Assembly (NCBI GenBank): GCA_964504665.1
Contig: CAZDEH010000003.1
Span: 1,140 to 65,139, forward strand
Direction of reading: 5' to 3'
Length of the DNA: 64,000 nucleotides
From: an uncultured Gammaproteobacteria bacterium
GTDB lineage: Bacteria > Patescibacteriota > Microgenomatia > Daviesbacterales > UBA10151
The position numbers and the translations under genes are program-made. This document shows, piece after piece, positions 2,262-57,394 of the stretch; the stretch's first letter is position 1, and the number at the start of each line of letters is the position of its first letter. A model generated the notes under the pieces. The model ran no database searches. It had not been told where the DNA came from and worked only from the letters and a program-made list of their open reading frames with translations.

Positions 2262-3044
2262 ATGATTTACGAGTTTGAACCGAAACAATTTATTTATAAC
2301 CGAACCGGTATCCTTGCAACAACTACTGCTGTTAATGAGGAAATTGCAGCACAATTTATGCGTCTTTCAGATCTTCGACGTAATATTGTCATTGTTGATT
2401 CTGGTAAAGAACCTGAATCTAATACTGTAACAGTTAGTTCTGACACTTTAGCCTGGCGTGCTGTTGCACCGTTAAGTGAACTTACAAAAACTGTTTTAAG
2501 ACCTAAACAATTTCATCAAATAGAAATTGTTGATCAGCAATATGTAGTCCAAATCCATGAGCAAATAATTGATGATAATATCAGAAAGAAAAGTTATTTT
2601 GATCACGAAGATTACGAAAGAAAATATCTTACAAGACTCAAAAAAGAAGTTAAAGATGCATCAGCTGAGATTTTATGGAATGAAAAGATTGGATTTTCTC
2701 AACAAACAAGAAATTGGTTATTATATTCTTTACCACTAGCAGTAATAGTTACGGATCTTATTAGAAGAGACTACCCCGGCGCATTAATTCAAGCAGGGAT
2801 ATTAATTGGATTTACAAACCCGATGCTAAACGTAATGGAAAATGACTATTTCAATAGAACTATGCAATATTTGAACCAAAGAAGACCCTTTTCTGTACCG
2901 GGATTTCAAGTGTTTATACCTCCTTATAGAAACCCAAGATCTTGGAAAAAAGCATTTTACCCTCTTTTCCCTATTGATAAATGGGTTCAGGGAAGAATAT
3001 TTTTAGCAAAACATGGACAAGAACTAATTACTGCTAAAACTTGA
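2262..3044 (+). CDS. hypothetical protein
   Basis: 260-aa ORF with coding-like composition and no family motif recognised; followed by a GC-rich hairpin. Confidence 0.4.
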   Translation: MIYEFEPKQFIYNRTGILATTTAVNEEIAAQFMRLSDLRRNIVIVDSGKEPESNTVTVSSDTLAWRAVAPLSELTKTVLRPKQFHQIEIVDQQYVVQIHEQIIDDNIRKKSYFDHEDYERKYLTRLKKEVKDASAEILWNEKIGFSQQTRNWLLYSLPLAVIVTDLIRRDYPGALIQAGILIGFTNPMLNVMENDYFNRTMQYLNQRRPFSVPGFQVFIPPYRNPRSWKKAFYPLFPIDKWVQGRIFLAKHGQELITAKT

Positions 3045-3117
3045 TCTTTAGCCACACAAGTGGACGTCTTGTGTGCCTAAATTAGAAAAACAGCCTCAAG
3101 TCTGGTAAAATACACTA

Positions 3118-4431: not shown

Positions 4432-5286
4432 ATGAAAAAACCTAAGTTGAAAGTGGTCTTTTTTGGGACACCTGATTTTGTGATTCCGGTTTTAACAACT
4501 TTAATCAAAAATTTTGATGTTGTTGGAGTTGTGACTGCACCAGATAAAGCAGTTGGCAGAAAACAAATCCTCACTCCCTCACCAATTAATTTAGCCTCAC
4601 AAGCCGAGGGCTTGCGAGGCTATAATCTTAAAATATTTACTCCCGAAAAATTAGATGAGGAGTTAGCCAAAAAAATATATAAATTAAAATCTGATCTATT
4701 TGTAATGGCTTCTTATGGCAAAATTATTCCACAATTTATTTTAGATATTCCCAAATTTGGTGCTATCAATATCCACCCGTCACTACTACCAAAGTACCGA
4801 GGACCTTCTCCCATCCAATCTGCTATTTTAAATGGTGATAAAATTTCCGGGATTTCCATTATGAAGATGGATGCCAAAATGGACCATGGACCTGTTATTT
4901 ATGCAGAAGAGTTTAGATTATCAAGTCTAGATAATTTTCAAACTTTGAGTATAAATATGTTTCTTCGTTCTGCCGAAATTTTATCTAAAATAATTACCGC
5001 ATTTATAAGCGGTAAATTAATTCTTACATCACAAGACGATATAAAAGCTACTTATTGTAAGTTGGTTACTAAAGAAGATGGATATTTTGATATTGATAAT
5101 CCTGCCTCTCCAGTAAAATTAGATCAAATGGTCAGAGCCTATTATCCCTGGCCCACAGCTTGGACTAAGTGGGAAGGTAAAATTGTTAAATTTTTACCAG
5201 GAAATATGGTCCAGCTAGAAGGCAAAAAGCCAGTTCAATTAGAAGATTTCTTAAGAGGTTATCCTAATTTCCCGTTAAAATCCTGA
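4432..5286 (+). CDS. fmt: methionyl-tRNA formyltransferase
   Basis: KVVFFGTPDFVIPVL N-terminus; NIHPSLLPKYRG plus a formyltransferase SLD-like motif; def-fmt neighbourhood. Contains an in-frame GC-rich palindrome (4592-4622). Confidence 0.85.
   Translation: MKKPKLKVVFFGTPDFVIPVLTTLIKNFDVVGVVTAPDKAVGRKQILTPSPINLASQAEGLRGYNLKIFTPEKLDEELAKKIYKLKSDLFVMASYGKIIPQFILDIPKFGAINIHPSLLPKYRGPSPIQSAILNGDKISGISIMKMDAKMDHGPVIYAEEFRLSSLDNFQTLSINMFLRSAEILSKIITAFISGKLILTSQDDIKATYCKLVTKEDGYFDIDNPASPVKLDQMVRAYYPWPTAWTKWEGKIVKFLPGNMVQLEGKKPVQLEDFLRGYPNFPLKS
4592..4622. repeat. REP-like GC-rich palindrome, family A (tagcctcacaagcc-gag-ggcttgcgaggcta), in-frame inside fmt, encoding LASQAEGLRG
   Basis: Imperfect inverted repeat seen directly; same core (gcctcgcaagg...ccttgcgaggc) at 28989-29017 and 48006-48035, all in the same codon phase. 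Confidence 0.7.
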
Positions 5287-6287: not shown

Positions 6288-7394
6288 TTATCGGAGACCT
6301 TCTAGTAACATAGAGTAGAACCTGAGATTGTGGATTGTAGCTAACCTAATAGATAAAACGTCCTGGATTTTAAATAAATGATGTAAATAGGCACGGGAAT
6401 ATTCCCTACAGGTTAAACAATCACAAAATTTACTGACTGGATCCATCGATTTTTCATATTTAGCGCTCCCAAAGTATAAGTTCGAGTAACAACTTCCTTC
6501 AATTAATCCTTGTTTAGTAGGAAGTTTGGTAAAAACGTATAACTTTTTATGGCGGGCTTCCCGGGTTGGGATCACGCAGTCAAAGATTCCATAACCCCAA
6601 CCAACACAGTCAACAATATTTTCCGGTCTACCCACCCCCAAAGCATATTTTGGTTTATTGTCTGGTAATAATGAGGCTGTATACTTTACAATTTCAGACA
6701 AAAATTTCCCATCAGCAACCGGAAAACCACCAAAACAATAACCATCAAAGCCAATTTTGATCAGCTCTTTAGCACAATATTTCCTTAAATTTTTATCATT
6801 TCCACCCTGAACAACTGCAAAAAGAAGAGGTTTAGCCTTGCAAGGATACACCTTGCGAAGCTGGGGCTGGCTAGTAGTTAATTTATTAAACTCATCTTTT
6901 GACCTTTTTGCCCACTTAATAGTCCTTTCTACTGAAATTTTTTGTTCATCAAATGAGCATTCCGGCTTAGTACAATCATCCAAAACTATAGCTATATCTG
7001 TACCCAACCGTAGTTGTAACTGAATTGATTTTTCAGGAGTCAGAACTATTTTTTGTGCTCCATTTGGCTTAAAAATAATTTCTTTATCCCTGATAACTCC
7101 AAATTGTGGATTATCATGGATCAAAGACATTACCTGGAAGCCCCCAGAATCGGTTATGATGGGTCTTGTCCACCTCATAAAGTAGTGAATACCGTCAAAA
7201 CTTTTAATTCTTTGGCTGAGTGCATCTGATAACAGATGATAGGTATTAATAACTAAACCCTCAACCTGAGCATTTTCTAAATCCGTGGCATCAACTCCCC
7301 TTACTACTCCCCTTGTTCCATCAGGGAAAAAGGTAGGCAGAGTTATTTGACCATGAAGAGTCTGTAAGTGACTTAAGCAACTGGATGAGAACAT
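6288..7394 (-). CDS. tgt: queuine tRNA-ribosyltransferase (tRNA-guanine transglycosylase)
   Basis: DSGGFQV, ALGVGRPE, FDCVIPTR and the zinc motif CDCLTCREYSRAYLHHL. Confidence 0.85.
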   Translation of the reverse strand: MFSSSCLSHLQTLHGQITLPTFFPDGTRGVVRGVDATDLENAQVEGLVINTYHLLSDALSQRIKSFDGIHYFMRWTRPIITDSGGFQVMSLIHDNPQFGVIRDKEIIFKPNGAQKIVLTPEKSIQLQLRLGTDIAIVLDDCTKPECSFDEQKISVERTIKWAKRSKDEFNKLTTSQPQLRKVYPCKAKPLLFAVVQGGNDKNLRKYCAKELIKIGFDGYCFGGFPVADGKFLSEIVKYTASLLPDNKPKYALGVGRPENIVDCVGWGYGIFDCVIPTREARHKKLYVFTKLPTKQGLIEGSCYSNLYFGSAKYEKSMDPVSKFCDCLTCREYSRAYLHHLFKIQDVLSIRLATIHNLRFYSMLLEGLR

Positions 7395-7649: not shown

Positions 7650-8684
7650 TTATCGCGTTTCTGCAACGCTATCATCAGATCTCCCTAACCCAGTAATTTC
7701 CTTCAGCCTTTGAGTAGCTAAAGTAAAAGATTTGCTGTCTCCATCCATTCCAAAATGATAGGTATATGTATTTGCTGCAAACAGAGTTTTATTTTCCGAC
7801 CTCAATTTCCGAATTTCATGACTAGTCGGTTCATGTTGTAGAATTTTATTTAAACAAAACCATTCATCGATTATCTCCCTCTCTGACGTACAATAATGTT
7901 TGCCTATACGGTTTCTCAACTTCTCCAGTTGGGCTTCTTTTTTTGGAGTAACTGAGTGAACATGTTCTGCAAAGACTTTTTGGTCTCGTAAAACACCAAT
8001 ACAGACACCACTTATTCCTTCGTGTTTACTATGATCACGTTGTAATCTGGAACTAGAAACACCTCCTGTGTAGAGTAAATCCCCTAAACAATTGGCTATC
8101 TTTGTATAACTTGTATTTAGTTTAATATAATTAGACCTTACACTCCCTCTTAACTCGAAAAATCCTTCCAAAAAACCCCATATGTAATCAGGATTTGTAT
8201 AAATCCAATTATGCTTATTAACTAAAGTTTCAGTCCACAAAGAACGCCTGAGATCACCAAAAGCTATAGCTAAAGATTTTGAATAGAAAATTGCATTATC
8301 TCTCATTAAATATACATTAACTCTGAACAAATCCTCCACGACCGACTGAAAAGTTTCTAACAGTTCTTTGTTTGAGCTATAAACTTCTACATTATACCCC
8401 CTATTTCCAAGTGCAACATAACCACCTCCAGAGACTAAACCTACTAACCAAGCTAACTTGCGTGAAGGTGTTAGTACCTCTGGGTAAATTATTTTTGACA
8501 TAAAATGCCTTTCCCGAGTCAAGTCTGCTCTCTTTAATGTATTGGATACACTATAAACACTTTTATAACGAAACCTTTCCTGAAGTTCTTCTAATGAAGA
8601 TAGCTTCCTAATTTCCCTAGCTTTATATTGTTCAATTTCTGTTCTGACAAACTGTCTTAATGCATCTGCTCTTTCTTTTGACAT
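7650..8684 (-). CDS. double-motif LAGLIDADG-like protein (paralog 1)
   Basis: LAWLVGLVSGGGYV and IWGFLEGFFELRGSV resemble LAGLIDADG motifs 1 and 2; clear paralogy to the next ORF (HNWIYTNPDYIWGF / HSWIMSNPEYIWGF; FAEHVHSVTPKKE / FAEYVHSVCPEKE; TYHFG / SYHFG). Confidence 0.5.
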   Translation of the reverse strand: MSKERADALRQFVRTEIEQYKAREIRKLSSLEELQERFRYKSVYSVSNTLKRADLTRERHFMSKIIYPEVLTPSRKLAWLVGLVSGGGYVALGNRGYNVEVYSSNKELLETFQSVVEDLFRVNVYLMRDNAIFYSKSLAIAFGDLRRSLWTETLVNKHNWIYTNPDYIWGFLEGFFELRGSVRSNYIKLNTSYTKIANCLGDLLYTGGVSSSRLQRDHSKHEGISGVCIGVLRDQKVFAEHVHSVTPKKEAQLEKLRNRIGKHYCTSEREIIDEWFCLNKILQHEPTSHEIRKLRSENKTLFAANTYTYHFGMDGDSKSFTLATQRLKEITGLGRSDDSVAETR

Positions 8685-8690
8685 AGATTT

Positions 8691-9848
8691 TTATCTTTCC
8701 TGATCTTCAATTATCCTTTCCAAATTAACTCTGGCAACACTAAATTTTCCCTCTCCGAAATGGTAAGAAAAGGTTGTAGCAGAATGCTCAATAATACCTT
8801 TTTCTCTTAAGTTTTCTATAAATGGAATTGTAGGTAGTTTGCCTCTTTGTTTTAAACTGAATTCTCTTACCAATAAATATTGTTCAACCAACTGTCCCTC
8901 TGATAATACTCTAGTATAAGGTGTAGGTAACTTGGCTTCTACTAAGGATAAATTTCTATAGTAATTAAGTTTTTCTTCTTTTTCAGGGCAAACAGAATGA
9001 ACATATTCGGCAAAAAATTTTAAATCACGGAGATTGAGAACACCTAATCCACTAATGCCTCCACTCTCCGTTTGCGACATAAGTAATCTCGGTCTTGCAA
9101 TATTAACTCTTTGGAAAAGTTCAGCCATAAAATTAATGTTGTTTGGATAGTTTGTTGAATAAACAAGTCCTTTTCCGTATTGTAAATACATACTAGTTTC
9201 AAAAACAGCTCGAATAAAACCCCAGATATACTCGGGATTAGACATAATCCAGGAATGTTTTATGGCAACTGTATCCGACCAATGATCCTTACGTAAATCT
9301 CCTAAAAATCGTGCAGATGGACGATCATAAAATCTGGCTAGCTCATATTGACGACCTTTTTTATCTGTTCTAATATCAATTCTTGCCATGTCACTCTGAA
9401 AGAGTTCTTCACCGACATTCTGAAATTGGGCAATCAGACGAGGATTAAACGTCGGTATTGAAATTGCTCCGCTTGATCGCTGTACTGTTCCCTCCTCCGA
9501 TAATAAACCTATCATCCAGGCTAAATTATAAGAAGGTGAGATCCTGGTACCAAACTCTACTCTAGCTAAACGTCTTTGTTCTACTAACCCTTCAGATCTC
9601 AATATATTGTAAACCGAGGCAAAACCGCGATAACTAAACAATAACCCCAATTCATCAGGAGTTGACAGGTGATTGATTTCTCCACTACGGAGTCTATTGA
9701 TTTCTTCTCTAGAAAAATCTAGTAATGCTTCTCTTCTAAATTTTCTCTCTGGGTTCATATTTTCAAATCTCCTGAGGTAAAAGGATGCGCCTGATATACT
9801 ATCGTCCAGTGCGGGCGTCTTTTTGTGCATCTTCAAGATCTCGGTCAA
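8691..9848 (-). CDS. double-motif LAGLIDADG-like protein (paralog 2)
   Basis: LAWMIGLLSEEGTV and IWGFIRAVFETSMYL; tandem paralog of 7650-8684. Confidence 0.5.
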   Translation of the reverse strand: MTEILKMHKKTPALDDSISGASFYLRRFENMNPERKFRREALLDFSREEINRLRSGEINHLSTPDELGLLFSYRGFASVYNILRSEGLVEQRRLARVEFGTRISPSYNLAWMIGLLSEEGTVQRSSGAISIPTFNPRLIAQFQNVGEELFQSDMARIDIRTDKKGRQYELARFYDRPSARFLGDLRKDHWSDTVAIKHSWIMSNPEYIWGFIRAVFETSMYLQYGKGLVYSTNYPNNINFMAELFQRVNIARPRLLMSQTESGGISGLGVLNLRDLKFFAEYVHSVCPEKEEKLNYYRNLSLVEAKLPTPYTRVLSEGQLVEQYLLVREFSLKQRGKLPTIPFIENLREKGIIEHSATTFSYHFGEGKFSVARVNLERIIEDQER

Positions 9849-28501: not shown

Positions 28502-30697
28502 ATGCCCAGGCATTATAAAAAACCAGTTAAATCAAGTTCGTGGATACTACCTCTTCTTGCTGTGGCTTTTATTTTGATCAAAATTGGGCAAATACCTCTT
28601 TTTTTATGCAAAGTCATCATATTACTACTGACAATAAAATTACCTAGCAGATTTTTGGCTGGGTTACCAAAAGTCATTAAATTTCAAACTGTTATTTTCC
28701 TTTTTGCTATTTTTATCATTCTCTATTCTTATATTTTGTTAAAACTAGCTGTTCAGCTTCCTTCACCGGAGTTACTATCTGTTACCCCCCGCCCATTAAC
28801 TACGCAGGTTTTTGACAGAAACGGCAAGTTATTATTTCAGTTTTATGAAGGACAAAACCGTCAACCAATTGATATCAATACGCTGCCAAAATATATACTG
28901 CAAGCAACAATCGCCATCGAGGACAAACATTTTTATTCCCATCTTGGTTTTGATGCAGAAGGAATCATCCGTGCTCTGAAAGTCCGTCTAGCCTCGCAAG
29001 GATCAACCTTGCAAGGCGGATCAACAATCACCCAACAATTAATTAAAAATACCTTACTCACCCCTGACAAAACCCTAAAACGAAAAATTAAGGAGGTTAT
29101 TTTAGCTTTTTGGGCTGAAAGATTATACACCAAAGATCAAATTCTCCAGATGTATCTAAACGAGGCACCTTTTGGTGGACCATCCTGGGGAATTGAATCT
29201 GCTGCACAAACGTATTTTAACAAAAGTGCGAAAGATTTAAGTTTGGCCGAAAGCTCATTCCTGGCAGGACTTCCCGCTGCTCCTACAGAATACTCTCCTT
29301 TTGGTATTTATCCGGATAAGGGGAAGACAAGACAAATAGAAGTTCTACGCAGGATGGTAGAAGATGGGTATATCACCAAAGAGCAAATGACCCAAGCTCT
29401 CTCTGAAACTTTATCCTTTAAATCTCAAATTTTAGATATTAGAGCTCCCCACTTTGTAATGTACGTCCGTTCTCTACTGGCTGCTAAATACGGCGAAAAA
29501 GTAGTTTCCCAAGGAGGCTTGAAAGTTATTACCACACTTGATTTGAGTCTCCAGGAAATGGCAGAAAATATAGTTACACAAAATATGATTCCGTTGGCAA
29601 ATTTAAAAGTTGGAAACAGTGCAGCTATGATCACCGATAGTAGAAATGGTCAAATTTTAGTGATGGTGGGATCAAAGGATTATTTCGAAACAAACAGTGG
29701 TAATTATAATGTGGCTTTGGCAACCCGTCAACCAGGCTCATCTATTAAACCTGTAACCTATGCCACAGGATTTATGCAAGGCTTTACTCCAGGTACAACC
29801 CTTCTTGATTCCCATACAACATTCCCTCAAGCTGGGAGTAAACCTTATTCCCCGGTTAATTATGATGGCAGATTTCATGGACCTGTTTCGATAAGAACAG
29901 CTCTTGGATCTTCATATAATGTTCCTGCTGTCAAAATGTTAGCTCTGGTTGGAGTTCCCCAAATGATAAATACAGCTAAAGACTTAGGCATTACCACATT
30001 TAGTGATCCAGATAATTACGGATTATCCCTCACTCTTGGAGGTGGTGGAGTCAGACTAATTGATATGATGACAGTTTACGGCACTTTTGCTGCAAACGGT
30101 ATTAAACATCCCTCGCAAGCAATCTTAAAAATATATGACCCATACGGAAATGTGTTGGAAGACCACAGTAAAGATCAAGGAAAGCGTGTATTGTCGGAAG
30201 AAGTGGCATATCTTATAAATAATATTTTATCTGATAATAACGCCAGAACACCTGCTTTTGGAGTTAACTCACTTCTACAAATTTCTGGACATATAGTAGC
30301 AGTTAAAACAGGTACTTCAGATGATAAACGGGATAACTGGACCTTTGGGTATACTCCGGAGTATACAGTCGGGGTTTGGGTTGGGAATAATGATAACTCA
30401 CCCATGAACCCTATTCTTACTTCAGTCATCACAGGCGCTACTCCTATCTGGCATGATCTGATGACACAGATTTTAGTAGACAAATCAGATTTAGCATTCC
30501 AGAAACCGCCCGGGATAATTAATGCTGTAGTAGATAGCAGACACGATTTGGCAATTGCTGGAGTTCCGCCAAAATCAGTAACCAGGCTCAGTAAAATTCG
30601 AGGGAAGAACGGAACAACTGGCGAAGAAAAAGAAACTACAGCTTTTTCTGATCAATTCTCTAATTTTAAGCCTAATCAAAAAACAGTCATTCAGTAA
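28502..30697 (+). CDS. bifunctional class A penicillin-binding protein (GT51 transglycosylase + transpeptidase), PBP1A-like
   Basis: AIEDKHFYSHLGFD, QGGSTITQQL, RKIKE (GT51 motifs); SSIKP (SxxK), SYN, KTGTSDD (KTG). Contains an in-frame REP-A palindrome at 28989-29017. Confidence 0.85.
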   Translation: MPRHYKKPVKSSSWILPLLAVAFILIKIGQIPLFLCKVIILLLTIKLPSRFLAGLPKVIKFQTVIFLFAIFIILYSYILLKLAVQLPSPELLSVTPRPLTTQVFDRNGKLLFQFYEGQNRQPIDINTLPKYILQATIAIEDKHFYSHLGFDAEGIIRALKVRLASQGSTLQGGSTITQQLIKNTLLTPDKTLKRKIKEVILAFWAERLYTKDQILQMYLNEAPFGGPSWGIESAAQTYFNKSAKDLSLAESSFLAGLPAAPTEYSPFGIYPDKGKTRQIEVLRRMVEDGYITKEQMTQALSETLSFKSQILDIRAPHFVMYVRSLLAAKYGEKVVSQGGLKVITTLDLSLQEMAENIVTQNMIPLANLKVGNSAAMITDSRNGQILVMVGSKDYFETNSGNYNVALATRQPGSSIKPVTYATGFMQGFTPGTTLLDSHTTFPQAGSKPYSPVNYDGRFHGPVSIRTALGSSYNVPAVKMLALVGVPQMINTAKDLGITTFSDPDNYGLSLTLGGGGVRLIDMMTVYGTFAANGIKHPSQAILKIYDPYGNVLEDHSKDQGKRVLSEEVAYLINNILSDNNARTPAFGVNSLLQISGHIVAVKTGTSDDKRDNWTFGYTPEYTVGVWVGNNDNSPMNPILTSVITGATPIWHDLMTQILVDKSDLAFQKPPGIINAVVDSRHDLAIAGVPPKSVTRLSKIRGKNGTTGEEKETTAFSDQFSNFKPNQKTVIQ
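28989..29017. repeat. REP-like family A palindrome in-frame in PBP1A (tagcctcgcaagg-atcaa-ccttgcaaggc, encoding LASQGSTLQG)
   Basis: Seen directly; same codon phase as the other two family A copies. Confidence 0.7.
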
Positions 30698-30777
30698 ACA
30701 TTTACTTTTAGCCTCGTAATATTATGATATAGAAAATCTATCTTGTTATCAACAAACACCTGTAATATTATAATTAA

Positions 30778-31167: not shown

Positions 31168-31189
31168 CCTCCAAGGAGAGTCCTTGGAG
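31168..31189. repeat. REP-like family B palindrome (cctccaagg-agagt-ccttggag) 40 nt upstream of the RAYT-like gene start
   Basis: Perfect 9-bp arms seen directly. Confidence 0.7.
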
Positions 31190-31227
31190 TCTTGACAAAA
31201 ACATTACTATATGTAATAAATGTATCT

Positions 31228-31914
31228 ATGCCTGCAAGAAACGCCATAAAACAATATCAGGAAAATGGATATTATCATCTTTATAATAGAGGTGTGGAAA
31301 AGAGGATTATCTTTCTGGACTCCCAGGATTATGGTGTATTCCTCTCTTATCTGAAAGAGTATCTTCTTCCTAAAGATGATGTTGGTTTGAGTAAACAACT
31401 CTCAAATTCCAATATTACTCCTAGAGAAAAGGATAAGATTCTTAAAGCTCTTAGATTAAATAATTTTTTTGGCGAAATAACCTTATTCACCTACTGCCTA
31501 ATGCCTAATCATTTTCACCTATTGATTAGACAAAAAAGTGCTGGTTCAATTAATAAATTTATGAGATCAATCGGAACAAGATACACCATGTATTTTAATA
31601 AAAAATATAAAAGGGTTGGAGCTCTCTGCCAGGCAGTGTACAAAGCAGTACTCATAGAAAATAACAACCAACTATTACACCTTAGCAGATATATTCATAA
31701 ACAATCCTTAGCTTCGCAAGGAGAGTCCTTGGAGGCACAACCATGCTCATATTTTGATTATCTTGGTAAAAGAAAAACTGAATGGGTAAAACCAGAAGAA
31801 ATTTTAGCCTATTTTTCTTCCACAAATCCCTTCCTCTCCTACCAAGCTTTTGTAGAAGAGAAAGATGATGAACTAATTCCCCACAAACTCCTTTTAGAAG
31901 AAGGCTGGCCATAA
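31228..31914 (+). CDS. HUH/Y1 transposase family protein (IS200/IS605 TnpA-like, REP-associated tyrosine transposase-like), paralog 1
   Basis: GYYHLYNRGVEKR (YHV.NRG-like), HUH motif MPNHFHLL, Tyr region RYIHKQ; ATG at 31228 lies downstream of the REP; paralog of 36343-37017. Confidence 0.65.
   Translation: MPARNAIKQYQENGYYHLYNRGVEKRIIFLDSQDYGVFLSYLKEYLLPKDDVGLSKQLSNSNITPREKDKILKALRLNNFFGEITLFTYCLMPNHFHLLIRQKSAGSINKFMRSIGTRYTMYFNKKYKRVGALCQAVYKAVLIENNNQLLHLSRYIHKQSLASQGESLEAQPCSYFDYLGKRKTEWVKPEEILAYFSSTNPFLSYQAFVEEKDDELIPHKLLLEEGWP
31707..31732. repeat. REP-like A/B hybrid palindrome (gcttcgcaagg-agagt-ccttggaggc) inside the RAYT-like CDS, encoding LASQGESLEA
   Basis: Seen directly; the left arm is family-A-like and the right arm family-B-like. 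Confidence 0.6.
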
Positions 31915-36284: not shown

Positions 36285-36309
36285 GCCTCCAAGGGGACGC
36301 CTTGGAGGT
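36285..36309. repeat. REP-like family B palindrome (gcctccaagg-ggacg-ccttggaggt), 5' flank of the RAYT-like gene
   Basis: Seen directly; an identical 23-nt copy at 37039-37061. Confidence 0.75.
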
Positions 36310-36342
36310 TGACATTTCTCACAGTCATGCTATTTTATATAT

Positions 36343-37017
36343 ATGCCCAGCAAAAATTCCATCAAACAGTATACAGAAAATAGCTATTATCATATCTATA
36401 ATCGAGGAGTTGAGAAAAGAAAAATTTTTCTTGATGAACAAGATTATGGAGTATTCCTCTCCTATCTTAAAGAATACCTTTTATCAAAAGATGAAAAAGA
36501 CTTATTAAATCAACTTTCTATTCCAACTATCTCTGCTCAAGAAAGGGACCGGGTACTTAAAAAACTTAGACTGAACAATTTTGCTGATGAAATAACTTTG
36601 TTAGCTTATTGTTTGATGCCGAATCATTTTCACTTCTTTATTAAGCAAAAAAACGAAAAGTCCATTGATAAGTTTATGAATTCCCTCTTAACTAGATATA
36701 CTATGTATTTTAATAAAAAATATAAACGAGTTGGGGCTTTATATCAGGATGTTTATAAAGCAGTTACGGTTGACCGCGAAGATCAATTTCTTTATCTTAC
36801 TAAATATATTCATAAACAGGCTTTAAAAACCCACAAAAGACAACCGTCTTCCCTACCTGATTATCTTGGAAACAGAAAAACTGAATGGGTTCACCCCGAA
36901 GAAATATTAGCTTATTTTTCCAAAACCAAACCCTCTCTTAGTTATAAAGATTTCCTTGATCTAGAAGAATCTGAAGATCTATTAACTATCCAAGACTTAA
37001 TGATTGATATCAAATAA
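36343..37017 (+). CDS. HUH/Y1 transposase family protein (RAYT/IS200-like), paralog 2
   Basis: SYYHIYNRGVEKR, MPNHFHFF (HUH), KYIHKQ; flanked by identical palindromes. Confidence 0.65.
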   Translation: MPSKNSIKQYTENSYYHIYNRGVEKRKIFLDEQDYGVFLSYLKEYLLSKDEKDLLNQLSIPTISAQERDRVLKKLRLNNFADEITLLAYCLMPNHFHFFIKQKNEKSIDKFMNSLLTRYTMYFNKKYKRVGALYQDVYKAVTVDREDQFLYLTKYIHKQALKTHKRQPSSLPDYLGNRKTEWVHPEEILAYFSKTKPSLSYKDFLDLEESEDLLTIQDLMIDIK

Positions 37018-37038: not shown

Positions 37039-37061
37039 GCCTCCAAGGGGACGCCTTGGAG
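37039..37061. repeat. REP-like family B palindrome (gcctccaagg-ggacg-ccttggag), 3' flank of the RAYT-like gene
   Basis: Identical to 36285-36307. Confidence 0.75.
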
Positions 37062-37063
37062 AT

Positions 37064-47872: not shown

Positions 47873-49063
47873 ATGAAAATAGGTTTTGATGGATCCCGTG
47901 CTTTTTTCAATAATAAGACCGGCACGGAAAATTATTCCTTTCAACTCTTAAAACACCTAGCTAAAATTGACAGTAAAAACCAATATATCATTTATTTAAG
48001 ACCTTTAGCCTCGCAAGGACCAGCCTTGCAAGGCTGGCCGACTAATTTCCATTTTACTATGATTCCTTATTCAAGACTATGGACTCAATTTGGCTTAGCT
48101 CAACAAACTTTTAAAGATAAAATTGATGTGCTATTTGTTCCTGCCCACACACTCCCCTTAATTAGAAAACCCGGACTTAAAACTGTAGTCACAGTACATG
48201 ACTTAGGTGCAGAGTACTTACCACAAACTCATCAATTAAAACAAAGGGTATATTTAAAATTGATAACTGATTTTCAACTTAAATCTGCCGGATATCTTAT
48301 TGCCGTATCAAGGAATACTAAAGATGATCTGGTGAAAAAAGTCCATATTAATCCTAATAAAATCACTGTTATATATGAAGGATATGATAAAACAGCATTT
48401 AAACCCTTAAAAACTGATGAATTAAAAGATACTTTAAACTATTACGATTTAGAAAGAGATAGATATTTCTTATTTGTGGGAACCATCCAACCAAGAAAGA
48501 ATTTAGAAAGGTTAATTAAAGCTTTTGCTAATTTTTTAGCGGGTGGTGCGAGCCGGGGCGCCCCATATTTTTATTATGGGGCTGGCGAGCAACAGGACCC
48601 GTTAAAGCCCCGAACAAAAAAAATACAACTTATCCTAACTGGTTCTAAAGGTTGGCTTTCAGAAGAAATTTATGAACTTCCTAAAAAGCTTGGTATCGAA
48701 AATCAAGTGAAGTTTTTAGGCTATGTTCCTGACAAGAATTTACCGGCGCTTTACAGCGGAGCTACCGCCTTACTTTTCCCTTCCTTATTTGAAGGTTTTG
48801 GACTACCTCTACTTGAAGCTATGGCTTGTGGAACACCGGTTTTAACATCTAATCTTTCTTCTATGCCGGAGATTTCAGGAAAAGCAGCACTCCTTGTAGA
48901 TCCTTACTCTGAAGAACAAATCGCGCAAGGAATTAATAGGCTATTTTACGATCAAAAACTAAAAAATCAGCTGAAAAAACTGGGAATTGCGCAAGCCCAA
49001 AAATATTCCTGGGAAAGATGTGCTGAGGAAACCTTAAAACTACTTGAAGCTACTTCAGATTAA
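47873..49063 (+). CDS. GT4-family glycosyltransferase carrying two in-frame GC-rich inserts
   Basis: EGFGLPLLEAMACGTPV (GT4 E-x7-E region); inserts at 48006-48035 (LASQGPALQG) and 48540-48613 (AGGASRGAPYFYYGAGEQQDPLKPRT). Confidence 0.75.
   Translation: MKIGFDGSRAFFNNKTGTENYSFQLLKHLAKIDSKNQYIIYLRPLASQGPALQGWPTNFHFTMIPYSRLWTQFGLAQQTFKDKIDVLFVPAHTLPLIRKPGLKTVVTVHDLGAEYLPQTHQLKQRVYLKLITDFQLKSAGYLIAVSRNTKDDLVKKVHINPNKITVIYEGYDKTAFKPLKTDELKDTLNYYDLERDRYFLFVGTIQPRKNLERLIKAFANFLAGGASRGAPYFYYGAGEQQDPLKPRTKKIQLILTGSKGWLSEEIYELPKKLGIENQVKFLGYVPDKNLPALYSGATALLFPSLFEGFGLPLLEAMACGTPVLTSNLSSMPEISGKAALLVDPYSEEQIAQGINRLFYDQKLKNQLKKLGIAQAQKYSWERCAEETLKLLEATSD
48006..48035. repeat. REP-like family A palindrome in-frame in the GT4 gene (tagcctcgcaagg-accag-ccttgcaaggct)
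   Basis: Seen directly. Confidence 0.7.
48540..48613. repeat. GC-rich element family C (gggtggtgcgagccggggcgccccat ... atggggctggcgagcaacaggaccc), in-frame in the GT4 gene
   Basis: Near-identical arms recur at 56326-56400 with a different central segment. Confidence 0.7.
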
Positions 49064-52429: not shown

Positions 52430-53503
52430 TTACTCTTCTGTTAAAATTTTAGCCATTTGTTTAAGTAAAGCTACCACTACCGGAGCAGGCATCAAACTAT
52501 GAGATTCCACTCCTTGGTTATCTTGCACTACCCAAGGACTTTCATGAGTACTCACGGTCTTGGTTTGTTCATCAAATTGATAGCTAAAAGCAGGTGTCAG
52601 CTCATATTTATCAAAAAGTTCTTCTGCCTGGCTTACAGGAATAGAATTCCGCAACAGTATGTTGGGGATACCGGAAAGTTTAAAAGACTCATCTATAATT
52701 TCCTGATCTTTTGCAAGCCTCTCTTTAATTGGGTCTATCCCTAATTCATCACCCTCTTTACTAACCATAATGGCTTTATTGCAAGATGGATTATCGCATC
52801 TCAGATAATATTCTTTTGTCTTTTCATCATATTCTACAATAGAGGTTGGTAATAATCTGATGTTGCGTGGAGCTTGACAGATAGGACAGATCCGGCGGAA
52901 TTTAATTCTTTCATTGATCACAGAGTCCGGAATATCAATCAAAATGTACATGTCTTGATCCGCTCCTCTCCCAACAATTTCCTTAAAATATAATGAGCAA
53001 GATATTTGATCAATTTCTCGCGGGTATCCATCCAGAAAAACACTTTTTCCGGCTAACTCATCAAATTTTACCCTGAGCATTGCCAGGATAAACTCTGAGG
53101 GGAGTAATTTACTGGCAGAACGACCCAAGAATCTTTCAACTGCCTCGTCAAAACTCAAAGGTCCCCTATAAAATGATTTTAATTTTTTGCCTTGCTCACC
53201 TTTAGAATAATTCTCCCAATCAGCATGTACTTCCCTCACCAAATCACCCACAGAAAGATGAACTATTTTTTCTTTTCCGATCAAATTGGAAAATATTTTT
53301 GAATACGTTCCTTTACCGGCATTCTTTTTCCCCACAAAGAAAGCAATGAAGTTTCGTTTTTCTAAAGCTTTTTTGATAATTTCAATTTCTTTTCCTGTTT
53401 TAGCTTGAAAATACGCCTGCAACGAATCGGGATTGGTTAAATCATAAACTTTAGTCACATCTTGTGTTTTAGCACCAATTAAAGGAAAATTAGTTTTTGT
53501 CAT
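52430..53503 (-). CDS. adenylate kinase-family protein (extended, Zn-lid type)
   Basis: GKKNAGKGTY (P-loop), SVGDLVRE, LDGYPRE, and lid CPICQ...CDNPSC. Confidence 0.55.
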   Translation of the reverse strand: MTKTNFPLIGAKTQDVTKVYDLTNPDSLQAYFQAKTGKEIEIIKKALEKRNFIAFFVGKKNAGKGTYSKIFSNLIGKEKIVHLSVGDLVREVHADWENYSKGEQGKKLKSFYRGPLSFDEAVERFLGRSASKLLPSEFILAMLRVKFDELAGKSVFLDGYPREIDQISCSLYFKEIVGRGADQDMYILIDIPDSVINERIKFRRICPICQAPRNIRLLPTSIVEYDEKTKEYYLRCDNPSCNKAIMVSKEGDELGIDPIKERLAKDQEIIDESFKLSGIPNILLRNSIPVSQAEELFDKYELTPAFSYQFDEQTKTVSTHESPWVVQDNQGVESHSLMPAPVVVALLKQMAKILTEE

Positions 53504-54642
53504 TATTCCACCTCTATATCTGAAATATTGTAACTGCCATCAGCATAAACGTCAACGGTAGCAAATCTGGGAGCCTCTGTATTCCGTTCTTTGGTTATTG
53601 CTCCAACTGTAACCATATTCATATTACTTGCCATATCAGTGTATGAAGTATATGCATGAATATCACCGGCAAAGATTCCTGCCACACCCGCATTTTTAAA
53701 ATTATTTAGCAGCTCCTTAGCCTGCTCTTTAATTTTAGTATTTTCCAATATGGCTGGATCTGTTTTTCTGGCAGAGCCCGCTTCGCCGAATCGAGACGAG
53801 TCCGCTTCGCCAGTCTTGCGAGGCGAGCCCATGACTTGATCTGAGGTTGGATGAACCAATGGTTCATGTAGAAAGATATAGATTGACTTAGATTGATTAG
53901 TCTGCACCTTATTTAATTCATTTTTTAACCAGTTAAATTGTAAATCGTCTACCCCATTATAATTATCAGAGTTAAAAGTAAGAATAAATCTGACACCGGA
54001 ATCGGAAAAAGCCTGATAAGGCATACCAAATACCTGGCTATAATTATTGACCGCAACACTACCTTTATCCCGAGAGTCCCACAAATCATGATCTCCCGGG
54101 ATGACATAAAAAGGTAAGCCGCTTGTCTCAAAAACCTGCTTGGCATCCTCCAACTCCTTAATTGTTCCCACATCACTAAAATCTCCCAAACCAATCACAA
54201 ACTTTGCTCCACCTGCTTTAGCTTGAGCTAAGGCTTTTTTTAAATCTTCATTGTTGTTATGTGAATCTGCTACAAGGGCAAATTTAAAAAGCGGAGATCC
54301 GCTTTTCTTTGTGGGACGGGAAGTATTGTTATTTTCCGGTGCATCGTTGTTATTCAAGGACAATTTTAGATCTTTAGCAGGACTAAAACTTAAGACACCG
54401 GCAATCATTTTGGTCGTTTCCTCTGAAGTAATAAGCCCAATAATTGCCTGTTTAGGGTTAGCTGGAAACTCATTCACAGCTTTCGTAATAGGATCACCCT
54501 CAAGTATATTCCCTGAAAAATATTTAAAAGCCTGAATCAGAGCTACTCCTAAAATTAAAAATAAAACCAGGGAAATAAACAGCCTCAAGATAGTCAAAGG
54601 CAGTGGTACTCCGTGTCTCCGATTTTCAGACCGATGAAACAT
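53503..54642 (-). CDS. calcineurin-like metallophosphoesterase, membrane-anchored, with an in-frame GC-rich insert
   Basis: ALVADSH, GLGDFSDVG, YVIPGDHDLW, GDIHAY; insert GSPRKTGEADSSRFGEAGSA encoded by 53776-53829. Confidence 0.65.
   Translation of the reverse strand: MFHRSENRRHGVPLPLTILRLFISLVLFLILGVALIQAFKYFSGNILEGDPITKAVNEFPANPKQAIIGLITSEETTKMIAGVLSFSPAKDLKLSLNNNDAPENNNTSRPTKKSGSPLFKFALVADSHNNNEDLKKALAQAKAGGAKFVIGLGDFSDVGTIKELEDAKQVFETSGLPFYVIPGDHDLWDSRDKGSVAVNNYSQVFGMPYQAFSDSGVRFILTFNSDNYNGVDDLQFNWLKNELNKVQTNQSKSIYIFLHEPLVHPTSDQVMGSPRKTGEADSSRFGEAGSARKTDPAILENTKIKEQAKELLNNFKNAGVAGIFAGDIHAYTSYTDMASNMNMVTVGAITKERNTEAPRFATVDVYADGSYNISDIEVE
53776..53829. repeat. GC-rich element family D (cccgcttcgcc ... 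ttgcgaggcgagcc), in-frame in the metallophosphoesterase
   Basis: Shares both termini with 59094-59134. Confidence 0.65.
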
Positions 54643-54659
54643 AATATTAATTATACACG

Positions 54660-56294
54660 CTACATTCTTTCCGGCGCTTCAATCCCCATAATTTTAAGTG
54701 TATTACCCAAAACAATTTTGCAGGCTGAAACTAAAGCCAGTCTGGATTTTTTTAAATCATCCGTTTCAGCATTAAGTACTCTGCAGGATTCATAAAACTT
54801 ATGGAATAAATCTGCCAATTTTATAACATAAGCTGTTAATTTATGAACATGATAGGTTTCCGCTATCTCTGCTATCAAATCAGGAAACTGAACTAAATGT
54901 TTAATTAAGGATAGTTCTAAGTGATTTAATTTAGCCACGCCAAGCGAGGCTTGGGAGCCCACATCGGCTTTATTTAAAATATTAGACATTCTGGCATGAG
55001 CATATTTAACATAATAGACAGGGTTTTTTTGTGATTTTTCTTTGGCTAAATCCAGATCAAAATTCATATGAGTATGCATATCATACATTAGAAAGAAAAA
55101 ACGGATTTCGTCTTTACCAATTGTCTGCAATAGCTCATCCAAAGCAACATAAGTACCTGCCCTTTTACTCATTCTTACTTCTTGTCCATTTTTTATAAGC
55201 TTCACCATCTGGAATAGGACAAAATCTAACCACTCAGTTTTAGTAATAGCTTCCACACTCAACTTTAATCTAACTACATAACTATGATGGTCAGCTCCCA
55301 GAAAATTTATCCTTTTTACGTAACCACGCTTGAACATCTCCAGGTGATGAATAATATCTGGCAGCAAATAGGTGGGTTCGGCTCTACCACGCACATCAAC
55401 TGACGTCATCAACACCCGATCTTTTTCATCCCCAAATTGACTTGATTTGAACCAGACTGCTCCGTCTTTTTTATAAGATAATCCTTTCTCTTCTAATAAT
55501 TTAACTGTTTTTTGGATTAAATCTCTTTCATGCAGACTTCGTTCGGAATAATACTCATCAAATTTAATTCCCATTTTTTTTATTGCCGGCTTAATTTCAT
55601 GATCCATAAGATAATCTGCCAGGATATAACCTAATTCCTGAGACTCTAAATCCAGTTTGTCTACAAATTTAACAGCTAATTCTTTAATATATTCACCCTG
55701 ATAATGTTCTTCTTTAGACTCAATTTTTCCTGCAGCAGAGAGCACAGATTCACCAAGTATTCTGATCTGATTACCAGTATCATTAACATAATATTCTCTA
55801 TTGACCTCAAATCCATTCCAGCTTAAAACGTTAGCTAGTGTATCCCCAAGTGACCCTCCCCTACCATTAGCTAGTGTTAAAGGACCTGTTGGATTAGCAG
55901 AAATATACTCAACCTGAATTTTTTTACCCTTCCCAAAATCAGACTTGCCAAAATCTTCACCCTCTTTTAAAATAACCTCCAAGCTTTTTACTAATATCTC
56001 ATCTTTAATATAAAAGTTAATAAAGCCCGGACCAGCAACTTCTATTTTATCCAAATATGGAAGGGTTCTTAAATTTTCCAAAATTTTATTAGCAATCTCT
56101 TGCGAAGTTTGCTTGCCTTTTTCTGATTTCTGTTTAGCAAGCTGCAAAGCGATGTTCGAAGTATAGTCTCCAAAGGATGAATTTTGTGGAATATCACAAA
56201 CTATATCAATGGTTTTAAAAACCTGCCTGTCGGCAGGCAGACCTAAATCTTCTACAGCTTTTTTTAAGTCACCAACTAACTGCTGCTTAATCAT
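54660..56294 (-). CDS. argS: arginyl-tRNA synthetase
   Basis: ISANPTGPL...GRGG (HIGH-region equivalent), C-terminal DALR/anticodon-binding region HKFYESCRVL. Confidence 0.85.
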   Translation of the reverse strand: MIKQQLVGDLKKAVEDLGLPADRQVFKTIDIVCDIPQNSSFGDYTSNIALQLAKQKSEKGKQTSQEIANKILENLRTLPYLDKIEVAGPGFINFYIKDEILVKSLEVILKEGEDFGKSDFGKGKKIQVEYISANPTGPLTLANGRGGSLGDTLANVLSWNGFEVNREYYVNDTGNQIRILGESVLSAAGKIESKEEHYQGEYIKELAVKFVDKLDLESQELGYILADYLMDHEIKPAIKKMGIKFDEYYSERSLHERDLIQKTVKLLEEKGLSYKKDGAVWFKSSQFGDEKDRVLMTSVDVRGRAEPTYLLPDIIHHLEMFKRGYVKRINFLGADHHSYVVRLKLSVEAITKTEWLDFVLFQMVKLIKNGQEVRMSKRAGTYVALDELLQTIGKDEIRFFFLMYDMHTHMNFDLDLAKEKSQKNPVYYVKYAHARMSNILNKADVGSQASLGVAKLNHLELSLIKHLVQFPDLIAEIAETYHVHKLTAYVIKLADLFHKFYESCRVLNAETDDLKKSRLALVSACKIVLGNTLKIMGIEAPERM

Positions 56295-56325: not shown

Positions 56326-56400
56326 TGCGAGTCGGGGCGCCCCATCGAACACCCGCAACGAAGTGAGGATGTCGGATGGGGCTGACGAGCAATAGGACCC
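56326..56400. repeat. GC-rich element family C, intergenic copy (atgggtggtgcgagtcggggcgccccat ... atggggctgacgagcaataggacccat)
   Basis: Both arms match 48540-48613 with 3-4 substitutions. Confidence 0.7.
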
Positions 56401-56401
56401 A

Positions 56402-57394
56402 TCATTTTTTTGATAATTTCCATACCCCTACTCCCAACATTAAATAATACCCTATCCACATCAATATCCCTGTTTGGTTAATATTAATACTGGCCCCAGG
56501 TATTTTGGAAAATAGCTGAACGATATAAATAAAGTAGGTCAGTAAAATTCCCGGTATTAAACCCACAATTTGACCCAAGAGTTGACTGATCAAACCTAAA
56601 ATCATAGCCACAAAACCTGAAATCATCACGATTGGCACACTCCAAAGAACTAAACTATTTGTAAGGAGTCCTGCAATAGAAATTTGATTAAAATTATAGG
56701 CAATCACTGGTAATACCATCAGTTGAGCAGCTAAAGTTACGGCAAAATCTTCTCTCATTAGCTTGGGGATCTTTTTTATAGCTTCAGAAAAAATTGGAGC
56801 TACCACTATTACTCCAAATGTAGCCAGAAAACTGAGCTGAAAAGAAATATTTAGCAACCAATTTGGTTGATAAAGTAACATCAGGCCTCCGGTAAACAGT
56901 AAAATCCACCAACCAGTTCCCTCCCTGCCTAACAGCTTTCCTGTATAGGAGAGTCCTGCCATAATAGCCGCCCTAACTACCGGCACTCCAAAGCCTGTTA
57001 ACACACTATAAAATATAATTACTCCTAAAGTGAATATTATTGTTTTTCTCCTGCCTAATAAACTTACCAGACTCATGACAAATCCTGCCAAAATAGTTAA
57101 ATTTTGACCTGAAACTACCACAATATGAATGGTTGAAGTTATCTGTAATTGCTTTTTAAAATAAAATGGTAAACTCGACTGATTCCCTAAAATAATGCCT
57201 GAAAGTAGGGCTGACTGAGGATAAGGTAAGATACGGTCAATAGTTTGAGATAGCGACGATCTAAGAGGCAAAAATAGCTGAACACCTTCTTCTTTATAAG
57301 TGGGGTCAACTCCCCCAATTTGGATTACCCTAAAACTAAATAATATAGCCCAAATTATGATAATCCCAATAATAACCTTGTACATTGTTACCAA
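56402..57394 (-). CDS. comEC: ComEC/Rec2-family competence channel protein (TM core only)
   Basis: SALLSGIILGNQSSLP...IHIVVVSGQNLTILAG (Competence domain); adjacent to comEA. Confidence 0.65.
   Translation of the reverse strand: MVTMYKVIIGIIIIWAILFSFRVIQIGGVDPTYKEEGVQLFLPLRSSLSQTIDRILPYPQSALLSGIILGNQSSLPFYFKKQLQITSTIHIVVVSGQNLTILAGFVMSLVSLLGRRKTIIFTLGVIIFYSVLTGFGVPVVRAAIMAGLSYTGKLLGREGTGWWILLFTGGLMLLYQPNWLLNISFQLSFLATFGVIVVAPIFSEAIKKIPKLMREDFAVTLAAQLMVLPVIAYNFNQISIAGLLTNSLVLWSVPIVMISGFVAMILGLISQLLGQIVGLIPGILLTYFIYIVQLFSKIPGASININQTGILMWIGYYLMLGVGVWKLSKK

Follow-up and report, generated by a model that had tools for sequence, protein, structure and literature searches.

Palindromes within housekeeping reading frames of a Microgenomates bacterium: probable REP-like elements associated with RAYT-like Y1 transposase genes

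Why should the same short GC-rich palindrome occur, in the same codon phase, within the reading frames of three unrelated genes? The question is raised by a 64-kb stretch of contig CAZDEH010000003.1 (assembly GCA_964504665.1), the whole of which we call the window and in which palindromes named Family A lie in fmt, in the gene for penicillin-binding protein 1A (PBP1A), and in a gene for a family 4 glycosyltransferase (GT4). The initial annotation of the window proposed that these are mobile mini-elements resembling repetitive extragenic palindromic (REP) sequences or Rickettsia palindromic elements (RPEs), carried in frame in the loops of proteins, and that two HUH transposase genes similar to those for REP-associated tyrosine transposases (RAYTs) could mobilize them. 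Our analysis indicates that Family A probably consists of REP-like mini-elements of Microgenomates bacteria of the candidate phyla radiation (CPR), of the Daviesbacteria type, which form a REPtron-like system with RAYT-like Y1 genes.

The three palindromes are present in the window where they had been described, and the identities of their host open reading frames (ORFs) are backed by Pfam matches. The fmt copy (positions 4593 to 4621; whole unit 4591 to 4623, plus strand) reads AGCCTCACAAGCC-GAG-GGCTTGCGAGGCT, a variant with a 3-nt loop, and codes for LASQAEGLRG, with Y as the next residue of the unit. The PBP1A copy (28990 to 29018; unit 28988 to 29020, plus strand) lies in the transglycosylase domain, reads AGCCTCGCAAGG-ATCAA-CCTTGCAAGGCG, and codes for LASQGSTLQG, while the GT4 copy (48007 to 48035; unit 48005 to 48037, plus strand) reads AGCCTCGCAAGG-ACCAG-CCTTGCAAGGCT and codes for LASQGPALQG followed by W. 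In all three host ORFs, the G of GCC is codon position 1, the phase designated phase I.

The window holds four more copies. Two of them, in the minus-strand genes tgt (6834 to 6862; unit 6832 to 6864) and leuS (62915 to 62943; unit 62913 to 62945, in an editing-domain loop), are in a second phase, phase II, and code for Q-L-R-K-x-x-P-C-K/E-A (QLRKVYPCKA in tgt and QLRKDTPCEA in leuS). They have in common the rare loop ATACA/TGTAT, which is TGTAT in tgt and ATACA in leuS, and the leuS copy has CAGC...GCTG ends. A hybrid copy (31710 to 31738; unit 31708 to 31740, plus strand) lies within a Y1 transposase gene and joins an A-type left arm to a B-type right arm; it is in phase I (LASQGESLEA), and its loop, AGAGT, is that of the hairpin upstream of the gene. 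The last is an intergenic relative at 3048 to 3080, TTAGCCACACAAG-N7-CTTGTGTGCCTAA, 4 nt past the stop codon of ORF 2262 to 3044. The identical codon phase asserted by the initial annotation therefore holds for fmt, PBP1A, GT4, and the hybrid copy, four of the six intragenic copies, but not for tgt or leuS.

A chance origin had been called negligible, and the counts agree: there are 24 matches to the 11-mer with at most 2 mismatches against 5.96 expected, with none of 100 shuffles yielding as many, and 6 sites match the full 33-nt pattern with at most 3 substitutions per arm against 0 in 50 Markov simulations. When folded, all window copies form stable single-stranded DNA (ssDNA) hairpins. Coding DNA makes up about 87% of the window, and with six of the seven copies in these 64 kb inside ORFs, the palindromes show no avoidance of it whatsoever. 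The fmt, tgt, PBP1A, GT4, and Y1 hosts are full length with intact domains; leuS is made up of two overlapping ORFs, and the segment bearing the palindrome is open and domain complete.

Beyond the window, we scanned metagenome contigs with the exact palindrome pattern and obtained at least 120 stretches, from groundwater or sediment; the family statistics given here and below are those of the matches listed. A conserved unit of 33 nt, or 11 codons, emerges from 146 distinct copies: TTAGCYTCGCAAGG-N5-CCTTGCGARGCTAA. More than 3 nt away from the 27-nt core GCYTC…GARGC, no information content remains, and no conserved target tetranucleotide was identifiable in these copies, conservation of the flanks stopping at the edge of the unit. 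The 11-nt arms are perfectly complementary in 98 of 142 copies, which carry 30 loop sequences in all, four of them accounting for 54% of copies. Copies on the same contig have identical loops in 17 of 36 pairs, compared with 3 expected by permutation. Many unrelated genes contain the palindrome, as does intergenic DNA, and it occurs on both strands and in three phases. Mostly perfect arms, few loop types, and loop sharing within contigs point to an amplifying repeat family rather than to convergence.

Family A copies were absent from 1.36 Mb of PBP1A neighborhoods from other CPR and Chloroflexi genomes (loci from a genome scan by PBP1A alignment, mostly distant, with a best identity of 58% among the matches listed), and the viral contigs of IMG/VR contained no matches. 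Family A is therefore lineage specific. The window itself belongs to an assembly of groundwater metagenome reads (ENA ERZ28564264, ANAN16-1_SAMN03202994), and the closest named homologs of its PBP1A, Tgt, and Y1 proteins belong to Candidatus Daviesbacteria and other Microgenomates/Patescibacteria. As identities for the palindromes, we rejected an array of the CRISPR (clustered regularly interspaced short palindromic repeat) kind and a plain transcription terminator, as well as an assembly artifact, since the same palindrome is present in independent ENA, JGI, and Logan assemblies. Within the arm, the core CCTTGCAAGG is self-complementary when arm position 5 is T; the arms are then direct repeats as well, which slippage could multiply.

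Next, we examined the reading frames. The consensus in phase I is TTA GCT TCG CAA GGN NNN NCC TTG CGA AGC TAA, the final codon of which is the stop TAA. In phase II it opens with T-TAG, a stop at its start, and in phase III it reads S-F-A-R-x-x-L-A-K-L without any stop. Our census covered 130 nonredundant copies with sufficient sequence context and counted ORFs of at least 100 amino acids. Copies without such an ORF number 58, and the other 72 (about 55%) are within one: 27 internal in phase I, 7 in phase I closing the ORF at its C terminus, 32 internal in phase III, 4 in phase III close to where the open frame begins, and only 2 internal in phase II. The element's inherent stop codons account for this bias, in which phases I and III are about equally frequent and phase II is far behind: a phase I reading meets TAA, a phase II reading meets TAG, and a phase III reading meets no stop. 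At the position of the TAA, internal phase I copies have a codon for tryptophan (11 copies), tyrosine (8 copies), glutamine (2 copies), or lysine (2 copies), and both phase II copies of the window (tgt and leuS) have CAG in place of the consensus TAG.

The shared phase had been offered as evidence of an element in its own right. A phase bias does exist across the family, and intergenic copies are found as well, but the bias stems from the element's stops. The phase shared by the first three copies is largely a matter of which insertions the element's sequence allows to survive, and with tgt and leuS in another phase, it is weaker evidence than had been supposed. Hosts in the metagenomes include ArgRS (two cases), a ThrRS-type synthetase, the PheRS alpha subunit, TsaD, topoisomerase I (TopA), a P-type ATPase, DegT aminotransferases, PMT_2 and GT4 transferases, and an M16 peptidase. 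Pfam domains in 17 of 20 host ORFs tested show that these are genuine genes.

We then considered the Y1 genes. The window has two, paralogs that are 63% identical and whose hairpins have different loops. Gene 1 (31228 to 31914, plus strand) encodes a RAYT-like HUH protein of 228 amino acids that scores 40.8 bits with Pfam Y1_Tnp, above the cutoff of that model, and 35 bits with NCBIfam REP_Tyr_transpos, under its cutoff. Gene 2 (36343 to 37017, plus strand) encodes 224 amino acids and is without the internal palindrome, a difference of 12 nt from gene 1. Both genes are accompanied by a variant, B-type hairpin, CCTCCAAGG-N5-CCTTGGAGG, on the plus strand. Upstream of gene 1 it lies at 31168 to 31190 (CCTCCAAGG-AGAGT-CCTTGGAG) and abuts a TTGACA box. 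Upstream of gene 2 it lies at 36286 to 36308 (CCTCCAAGG-GGACG-CCTTGGAGG), and downstream of gene 2 it returns at 37040 to 37062 as a terminator-like direct repeat with the same GGACG loop. The two upstream hairpins lead straight into a TTGACA −35 box (31190 to 31227 and 36305 to 36342), which in gene 2 is part of a promoter-like site, TTGACA-16-TATTTT with an upstream TG (36309 to 36336). From this arrangement, the upstream hairpin may be an operator or another regulator of the transposase promoter.

A phmmer search of PDB with the Y1 proteins gave no matches, which were obtained instead by profile and fold searches. The family profile retrieved ISDra2 TnpA, with NHFH and VYKA aligned to its HUH motif and catalytic tyrosine, respectively; both motifs are invariant in the two alignments checked (A4 and A5). 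The AlphaFold model of the gene 2 product (predicted local distance difference test score, 84.6; predicted template modeling [TM] score, 0.81) has as its top Foldseek match in PDB 4ER8 (E = 4.6e-5; target-normalized TM score, 0.63), an E. coli RAYT with a REP hairpin bound, followed by IS200/IS605 TnpA structures.

The association between hairpin and gene extends to the family. On about 26 contigs chosen by the palindrome alone, a Y1 homolog (48 to 73% identity) is bracketed by the hairpin, as at loci L111, L123, L132, L153, L160, and L179; at L111, a hairpin at 231 to 257 and another at 957 to 983 enclose a Y1 gene at 283 to 954. The loops of the two flanking hairpins are usually identical and on the same strand, so that the hairpins are direct repeats. 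The stop codon of the Y1 homolog is often the hairpin's own TAG, and the hairpin variant covaries with the gene, divergent genes having divergent hairpins. At one further locus, L095, the Y1 gene is preceded by a three-arm array, GCCTTGCAAGG-TCA-GCCTTGCAAGG-TCTCA-CCTTGCAAACG. A palindrome also sits inside the Y1 genes at one fixed place: 35 of 120 homologs have the exact peptide ALASQGxxLR.. after YIHKQ, and many others have visibly decayed forms of it. Thus, of the initial proposal that the two HUH genes are the mobilizers, the hairpin bracketing stands for Y1 homologs across the family, while the window's own genes go with B-type hairpins and mobilization is a prediction.

Were these copies acquired, or are they ancestral? 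In tgt, two orthologs with 86 to 87% identity (L206 and L208) are empty, with a loop T-KGKKQ-KP as in distant relatives, while the window (loop TGTAT), L207 (CTGGT), and L209 (CCTGG) are filled in phase II. The filled orthologs show a net gain of 6 to 8 codons over the empty ones, and the insert amounts to 13 residues relative to solved Tgt structures in PDB. The fmt ortholog in L206, a close relative, is likewise without the palindrome at this site and has a different loop of similar length. Because the tgt and fmt sites are empty in close relatives, the copies are acquisitions, and the element is polymorphic for presence and absence. In PBP1A, orthologs at 60 to 82% identity have the element in the same loop, which means that some insertions happened long ago or more than once. 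In other lineages, the same Tgt loop holds element-derived peptides in differing frames and registers (LASQG.., QGxALRS.., and PRK..PC.. in homologs P0126 to P0159), and elements seem to land or to be retained in this loop repeatedly.

The suggestion in the initial annotation that the element may partly replace rather than purely add sequence agrees with the alignments, in which net gains are about −3 to +9 codons overall compared with the 11 that the element encodes. The window Fmt is 5 residues longer than E. coli and Bacillus Fmt, with ASQAEGL over the native AEEKGL helix. In PBP1A, the spacing from RA to GGSTITQQ is 13 residues at baseline and 15 in the window and in an 82% identical relative (L202); in two other orthologs, the element lies upstream of this position, by 2 codons in L203 and by 3 in L204. 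In the window PBP1A, the right arm, TTGCAAGGC, coincides with native L-Q-G codons before GGSTITQQ. The gain is 3 residues in GT4 (8 residues in homologs at 40% identity and 11 in the window), about 2 in leuS, and 12 in the TsaD host of L146; in the TopA alignment, the element is inside a large variable region. Across 150 LeuRS cluster representatives, the loop between the conserved LPI and GxLVN anchors ranges from about 10 to more than 50 residues in CPR. The low net gains could reflect either trimming after insertion in fast-evolving loops or an integration that replaces native sequence.

An all-against-all blastn comparison of element flanks in the fetched loci gave no near-identical filled/empty pair by which to set junctions or target sites. 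A TA target duplication would suit the symmetric TTA/TAA ends, but it would imply a 29-nt insertion and hence a frameshift, and this model was not adopted. Around the PBP1A palindrome, GGATCAAC occurs twice at 29000 to 29024, on either side of the right arm, and the protein reads QGST-LQG-GST; the conserved QGGST codons seem to have been duplicated locally into the loop by slippage or template switching. About 10 nt past the PBP1A stop, a half-site, TTTTAGCCTCG (30705 to 30725), resembles the element's left foot and arm without the right arm.

The explanation that we favor joins these observations as follows. The unit would be the 33-nt, nearly perfect symmetric hairpin, and the RAYT-like Y1/HUH genes would be ssDNA transposase genes each bracketed by two same-strand copies of its own hairpin variant. 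Solitary hairpins were most likely copied or moved in ssDNA by Y1, the putative mobilizing enzyme, or homogenized against other copies. With a length of 11 codons, an insertion into an ORF would keep the reading frame, and the element's stops would then decide which insertions survive: phase III would stay open, phase II, opening with TAG, would be rare, and a phase I insertion would either terminate the gene at its final TAA or require a change of that codon. Persistence would be limited to surface loops that tolerate changes in length, such as helix 2 of fmt, the PBP1A loop before GGSTITQQ, the tgt loop, and the connective polypeptide 1 (CP1) loop of leuS, where copies would give rise to short peptides by translation and would afterwards be trimmed or decay. 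How native codons are lost on insertion would be part of this process.

What is new here is a variant of known selfish DNA of the REP/RAYT type and no new principle, intragenic REPs and the Rickettsia RPEs being precedents. RAYT genes flanked by cognate REPs, or REPtrons, are established (PMC2817692, PMC3733652), and like REP/RAYT systems, such as E. coli TnpA_REP with its structure 4ER8, Family A combines dispersed short GC-rich palindromes in subfamilies with a hairpin-bracketed Y1/HUH gene whose hairpin type covaries. Intragenic REPs are known in several species, Opitutus terrae having the most GTAG-type copies (PMC3733652). Unlike REPs, which are predominantly extragenic, Family A is largely intragenic in the window, with six of seven copies, and to about 55% in the metagenome sample. 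Its copies are mostly singlets, unlike REPIN doublets and bacterial interspersed mosaic elements, with two diverged Y1 genes in 64 kb. Compared with canonical RAYTs, the window Y1 proteins are longer, at about 225 amino acids with a C-terminal extension, and their host is a CPR bacterium. In the literature that we searched, no link of REP/RAYT systems to Patescibacteria was found.

The likeness to Rickettsia RPEs lies in palindromes that are in frame in functional genes of a small AT-rich genome and translated in tolerant loops of housekeeping proteins (PMC3733652). Short RPE-4 and RPE-6 have been classed as CGTC REPs, and no dedicated transposase is known for the CGTC/RPE repeats (PMC3733652). 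Family A differs in its 33-nt unit, in having an evident cognate Y1 gene family, and in its unrelated sequence and host lineage. RPE-1 elements are longer palindromic insertions of about 100 to 150 bp. The mobile GC clusters and double-hairpin elements of fungal mitochondria are also short GC-rich palindromes in AT-rich genomes and are tolerated in coding regions, but they are organellar, have no known Y1 association, and are unrelated in sequence.

Several observations weigh against the REP-like reading. REPs are defined by an asymmetric GT(A/G)G or CGTC head (PMC2817692, PMC3733652), whereas Family A is symmetric, TTAG...CTAA, with G at position −2 in 7% of copies. REPs flanking RAYT genes are inverted (PMC2817692), whereas no case of inverted flanking hairpins was found here, and at least 10 loci have loops and shared imperfections direct on one strand. 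The window Y1 proteins reach 35 to 39 bits with the NCBIfam RAYT equivalog, whose cutoff is 80, and they are accompanied by B-type and not A-type hairpins, with no cognate gene for the A type in these 64 kb. Mobilization by Y1 is predicted from sequence and model. Simple cut-and-paste insertion predicts a gain of 11 codons, and the net gain is well under this at five of the six intragenic sites. In tgt, 15 native nucleotides are gone where the element sits, which cut-and-paste would not lead one to expect, and a neighbor-joining tree nests the empty tgt alleles within the filled clade, so that either allelic replacement must have removed the element or insertion at this site must have happened more than once. 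Finally, at orthologous sites in other lineages (L102/L159, L109/L199, L126/L103, and L167/L187), the arms are identical at 25 to 28 of 28 positions while the flanks are 67 to 74% identical, and the loops switch among the major types. Near-perfect arms with switching loops suggest homogenization, reinsertion, or selection on the arm sequence, and not the simple decay of an inactive insertion. In the PBP1A lineage of the window, arms (23 of 28 identical) and flanks (81%) have diverged alike, which fits the window's Family A copies being aging relics, the resident Y1 genes being of the B variant.

These near-perfect arms between flanks of about 70% identity, together with loops that switch between major subfamily types, are the basis of a stronger reading in which in-frame hairpins are not passive but actively maintained in essential genes across species, a Y1-dependent or recombinational refreshing overwriting the loop with an 11-codon cassette. 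We regard this as unlikely on present evidence. If true, it would mean a replacement-type integration (patch conversion) for a REP-like element and a built-in source of loop variation in CPR proteomes.

A different account, which we likewise hold to be improbable, does without a domesticated and vertically inherited REP/RAYT system: the hairpins would be solo ends, or derivatives like miniature inverted-repeat transposable elements (for example, palindrome-associated transposable elements [PATEs]), of a multicopy insertion sequence of the IS200/IS605 type that transposes as hairpin-Y1-hairpin. Family A does share with IS200/IS605 elements and PATEs a Y1 HUH transposase, same-strand subterminal hairpins at both ends, and an upstream hairpin that may regulate the gene, and the flanking hairpins are direct repeats like the left end (LE) and right end (RE) of such elements. 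The best sequence-profile match is ISDra2 TnpA; among sequence and fold matches of the window Y1 proteins, the TnpA structures of ISDra2, IS200, and IS608 rank next, and the threshold of the NCBIfam RAYT model is not reached. The Y1 family is also large: a threshold of E<=1e-10 yields 7882 proteins, many of them from contigs about 1 kb long, as is typical of assembly-breaking repeats, and the window has two copies within 5 kb. Those two copies, however, are old paralogs at 63% identity with different loops and not products of recent transposition. Full units are far fewer than solitary hairpins, the best fold match is the RAYT 4ER8, and the same symmetric hairpin stands at both ends where distinct LE and RE hairpins would be expected. 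Unlike LE-plus-RE miniatures of IS200/IS605, the dispersed units are single 33-nt hairpins without an identifiable target tetranucleotide.

It is very unlikely that the palindrome is instead a cis-element useful to the host, such as a bound DNA or RNA hairpin, a pause or termination site, or an uptake or recombination signal, spread by selection and gene conversion and merely shared by Y1. The arm conservation at orthologous coding sites would suit such a role, as would the one fixed internal site in Y1 genes (exact in some homologs and decayed in many), the upstream hairpin adjoining the Y1 promoter, and the terminator-like downstream hairpin; CPR bacteria are moreover thought to depend on DNA uptake. 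Against it, copies have no common position relative to genes, being spread over unrelated protein loops, three phases, both strands, and intergenic DNA, and close relatives lack the palindrome at tgt and fmt. The arms in PBP1A have diverged as fast as their flanks, the subfamily structure and same-contig loop sharing fit amplification, and an Rfam search returned tRNAs only and no family for the palindrome. That the shared sequence is only a protein motif or chance convergence in coding DNA is effectively refuted, despite the PBP1A right arm matching native L-Q-G codons (TTG CAR GGN) conserved in distant element-free relatives and the fmt peptide aligning with a native helix, since the same nucleotides occur in three frames as three peptides and in intergenic copies, the hosts are unrelated proteins, and the palindromic symmetry and statistics go beyond protein constraint. 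Taken together, the dispersed family, the bracketing of Y1 genes, and the empty tgt and fmt sites support the initial proposal of a REP- or RPE-like mini-element carried in frame in protein loops.

Some features near these genes deserve mention in their own right. The two ORFs of leuS (61610 to 63918, minus strand; 163 and 616 amino acids) are in different frames and join at 63427 to 63460, where there is a tandem near-duplication, KKELEQWF then QKEVDQWF. Database LeuRS representatives of 631 amino acids begin at the same point, so that the split in LeuRS seems to be genuine and not an error of sequencing. Many CPR-type LeuRS representatives (P0362 to P0510) are 900 to 1340 amino acids long and match the query in 2 to 5 separate stretches, indicating large insertions in the enzyme. 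Adjoining tgt on the minus strand are two paralogous ORFs (7650 to 8684 and 8691 to 9848; 32% identity over 335 amino acids), one with a faint LAGLIDADG_3 match, which may be homing-endonuclease-like genes. A GC-rich inverted repeat unrelated to Family A (56339 to 56382; 19-nt arms, 79% complementary, with a 6-nt spacer) lies in the gap between ORFs 54660 to 56294 and 56402 to 57394. GC-rich low-complexity coding stretches at 53770 to 53830 and 59070 to 59130 (in ORFs 53503 to 54642 and 58526 to 61150) are rich in GCTTCGCC/GAGGC words and have short words in common with the palindrome arms, yet they are not family hairpins.

CPR bacteria, with their tiny and gene-dense genomes, are generally considered to have little mobile DNA. 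In the window, hairpins are placed as though coding sequence were no barrier, and the hosts of the family include aminoacyl-tRNA synthetases, PBP1A, Fmt, TsaD, and topoisomerase I. Selfish ssDNA elements can thus persist despite scarce intergenic space through a length of 11 codons and insertion into loops that tolerate it. Recurrent inserts such as LASQG..LR, SFAR..LAKL, and QLRK..PCEA in CPR protein alignments are explained in this way and mark insertion-tolerant loops, and the stop codons that the element supplies are a warning of annotation artifacts and assembly breaks. The system also offers a compact hairpin-enzyme pair for asking how REP-like sequences are copied.

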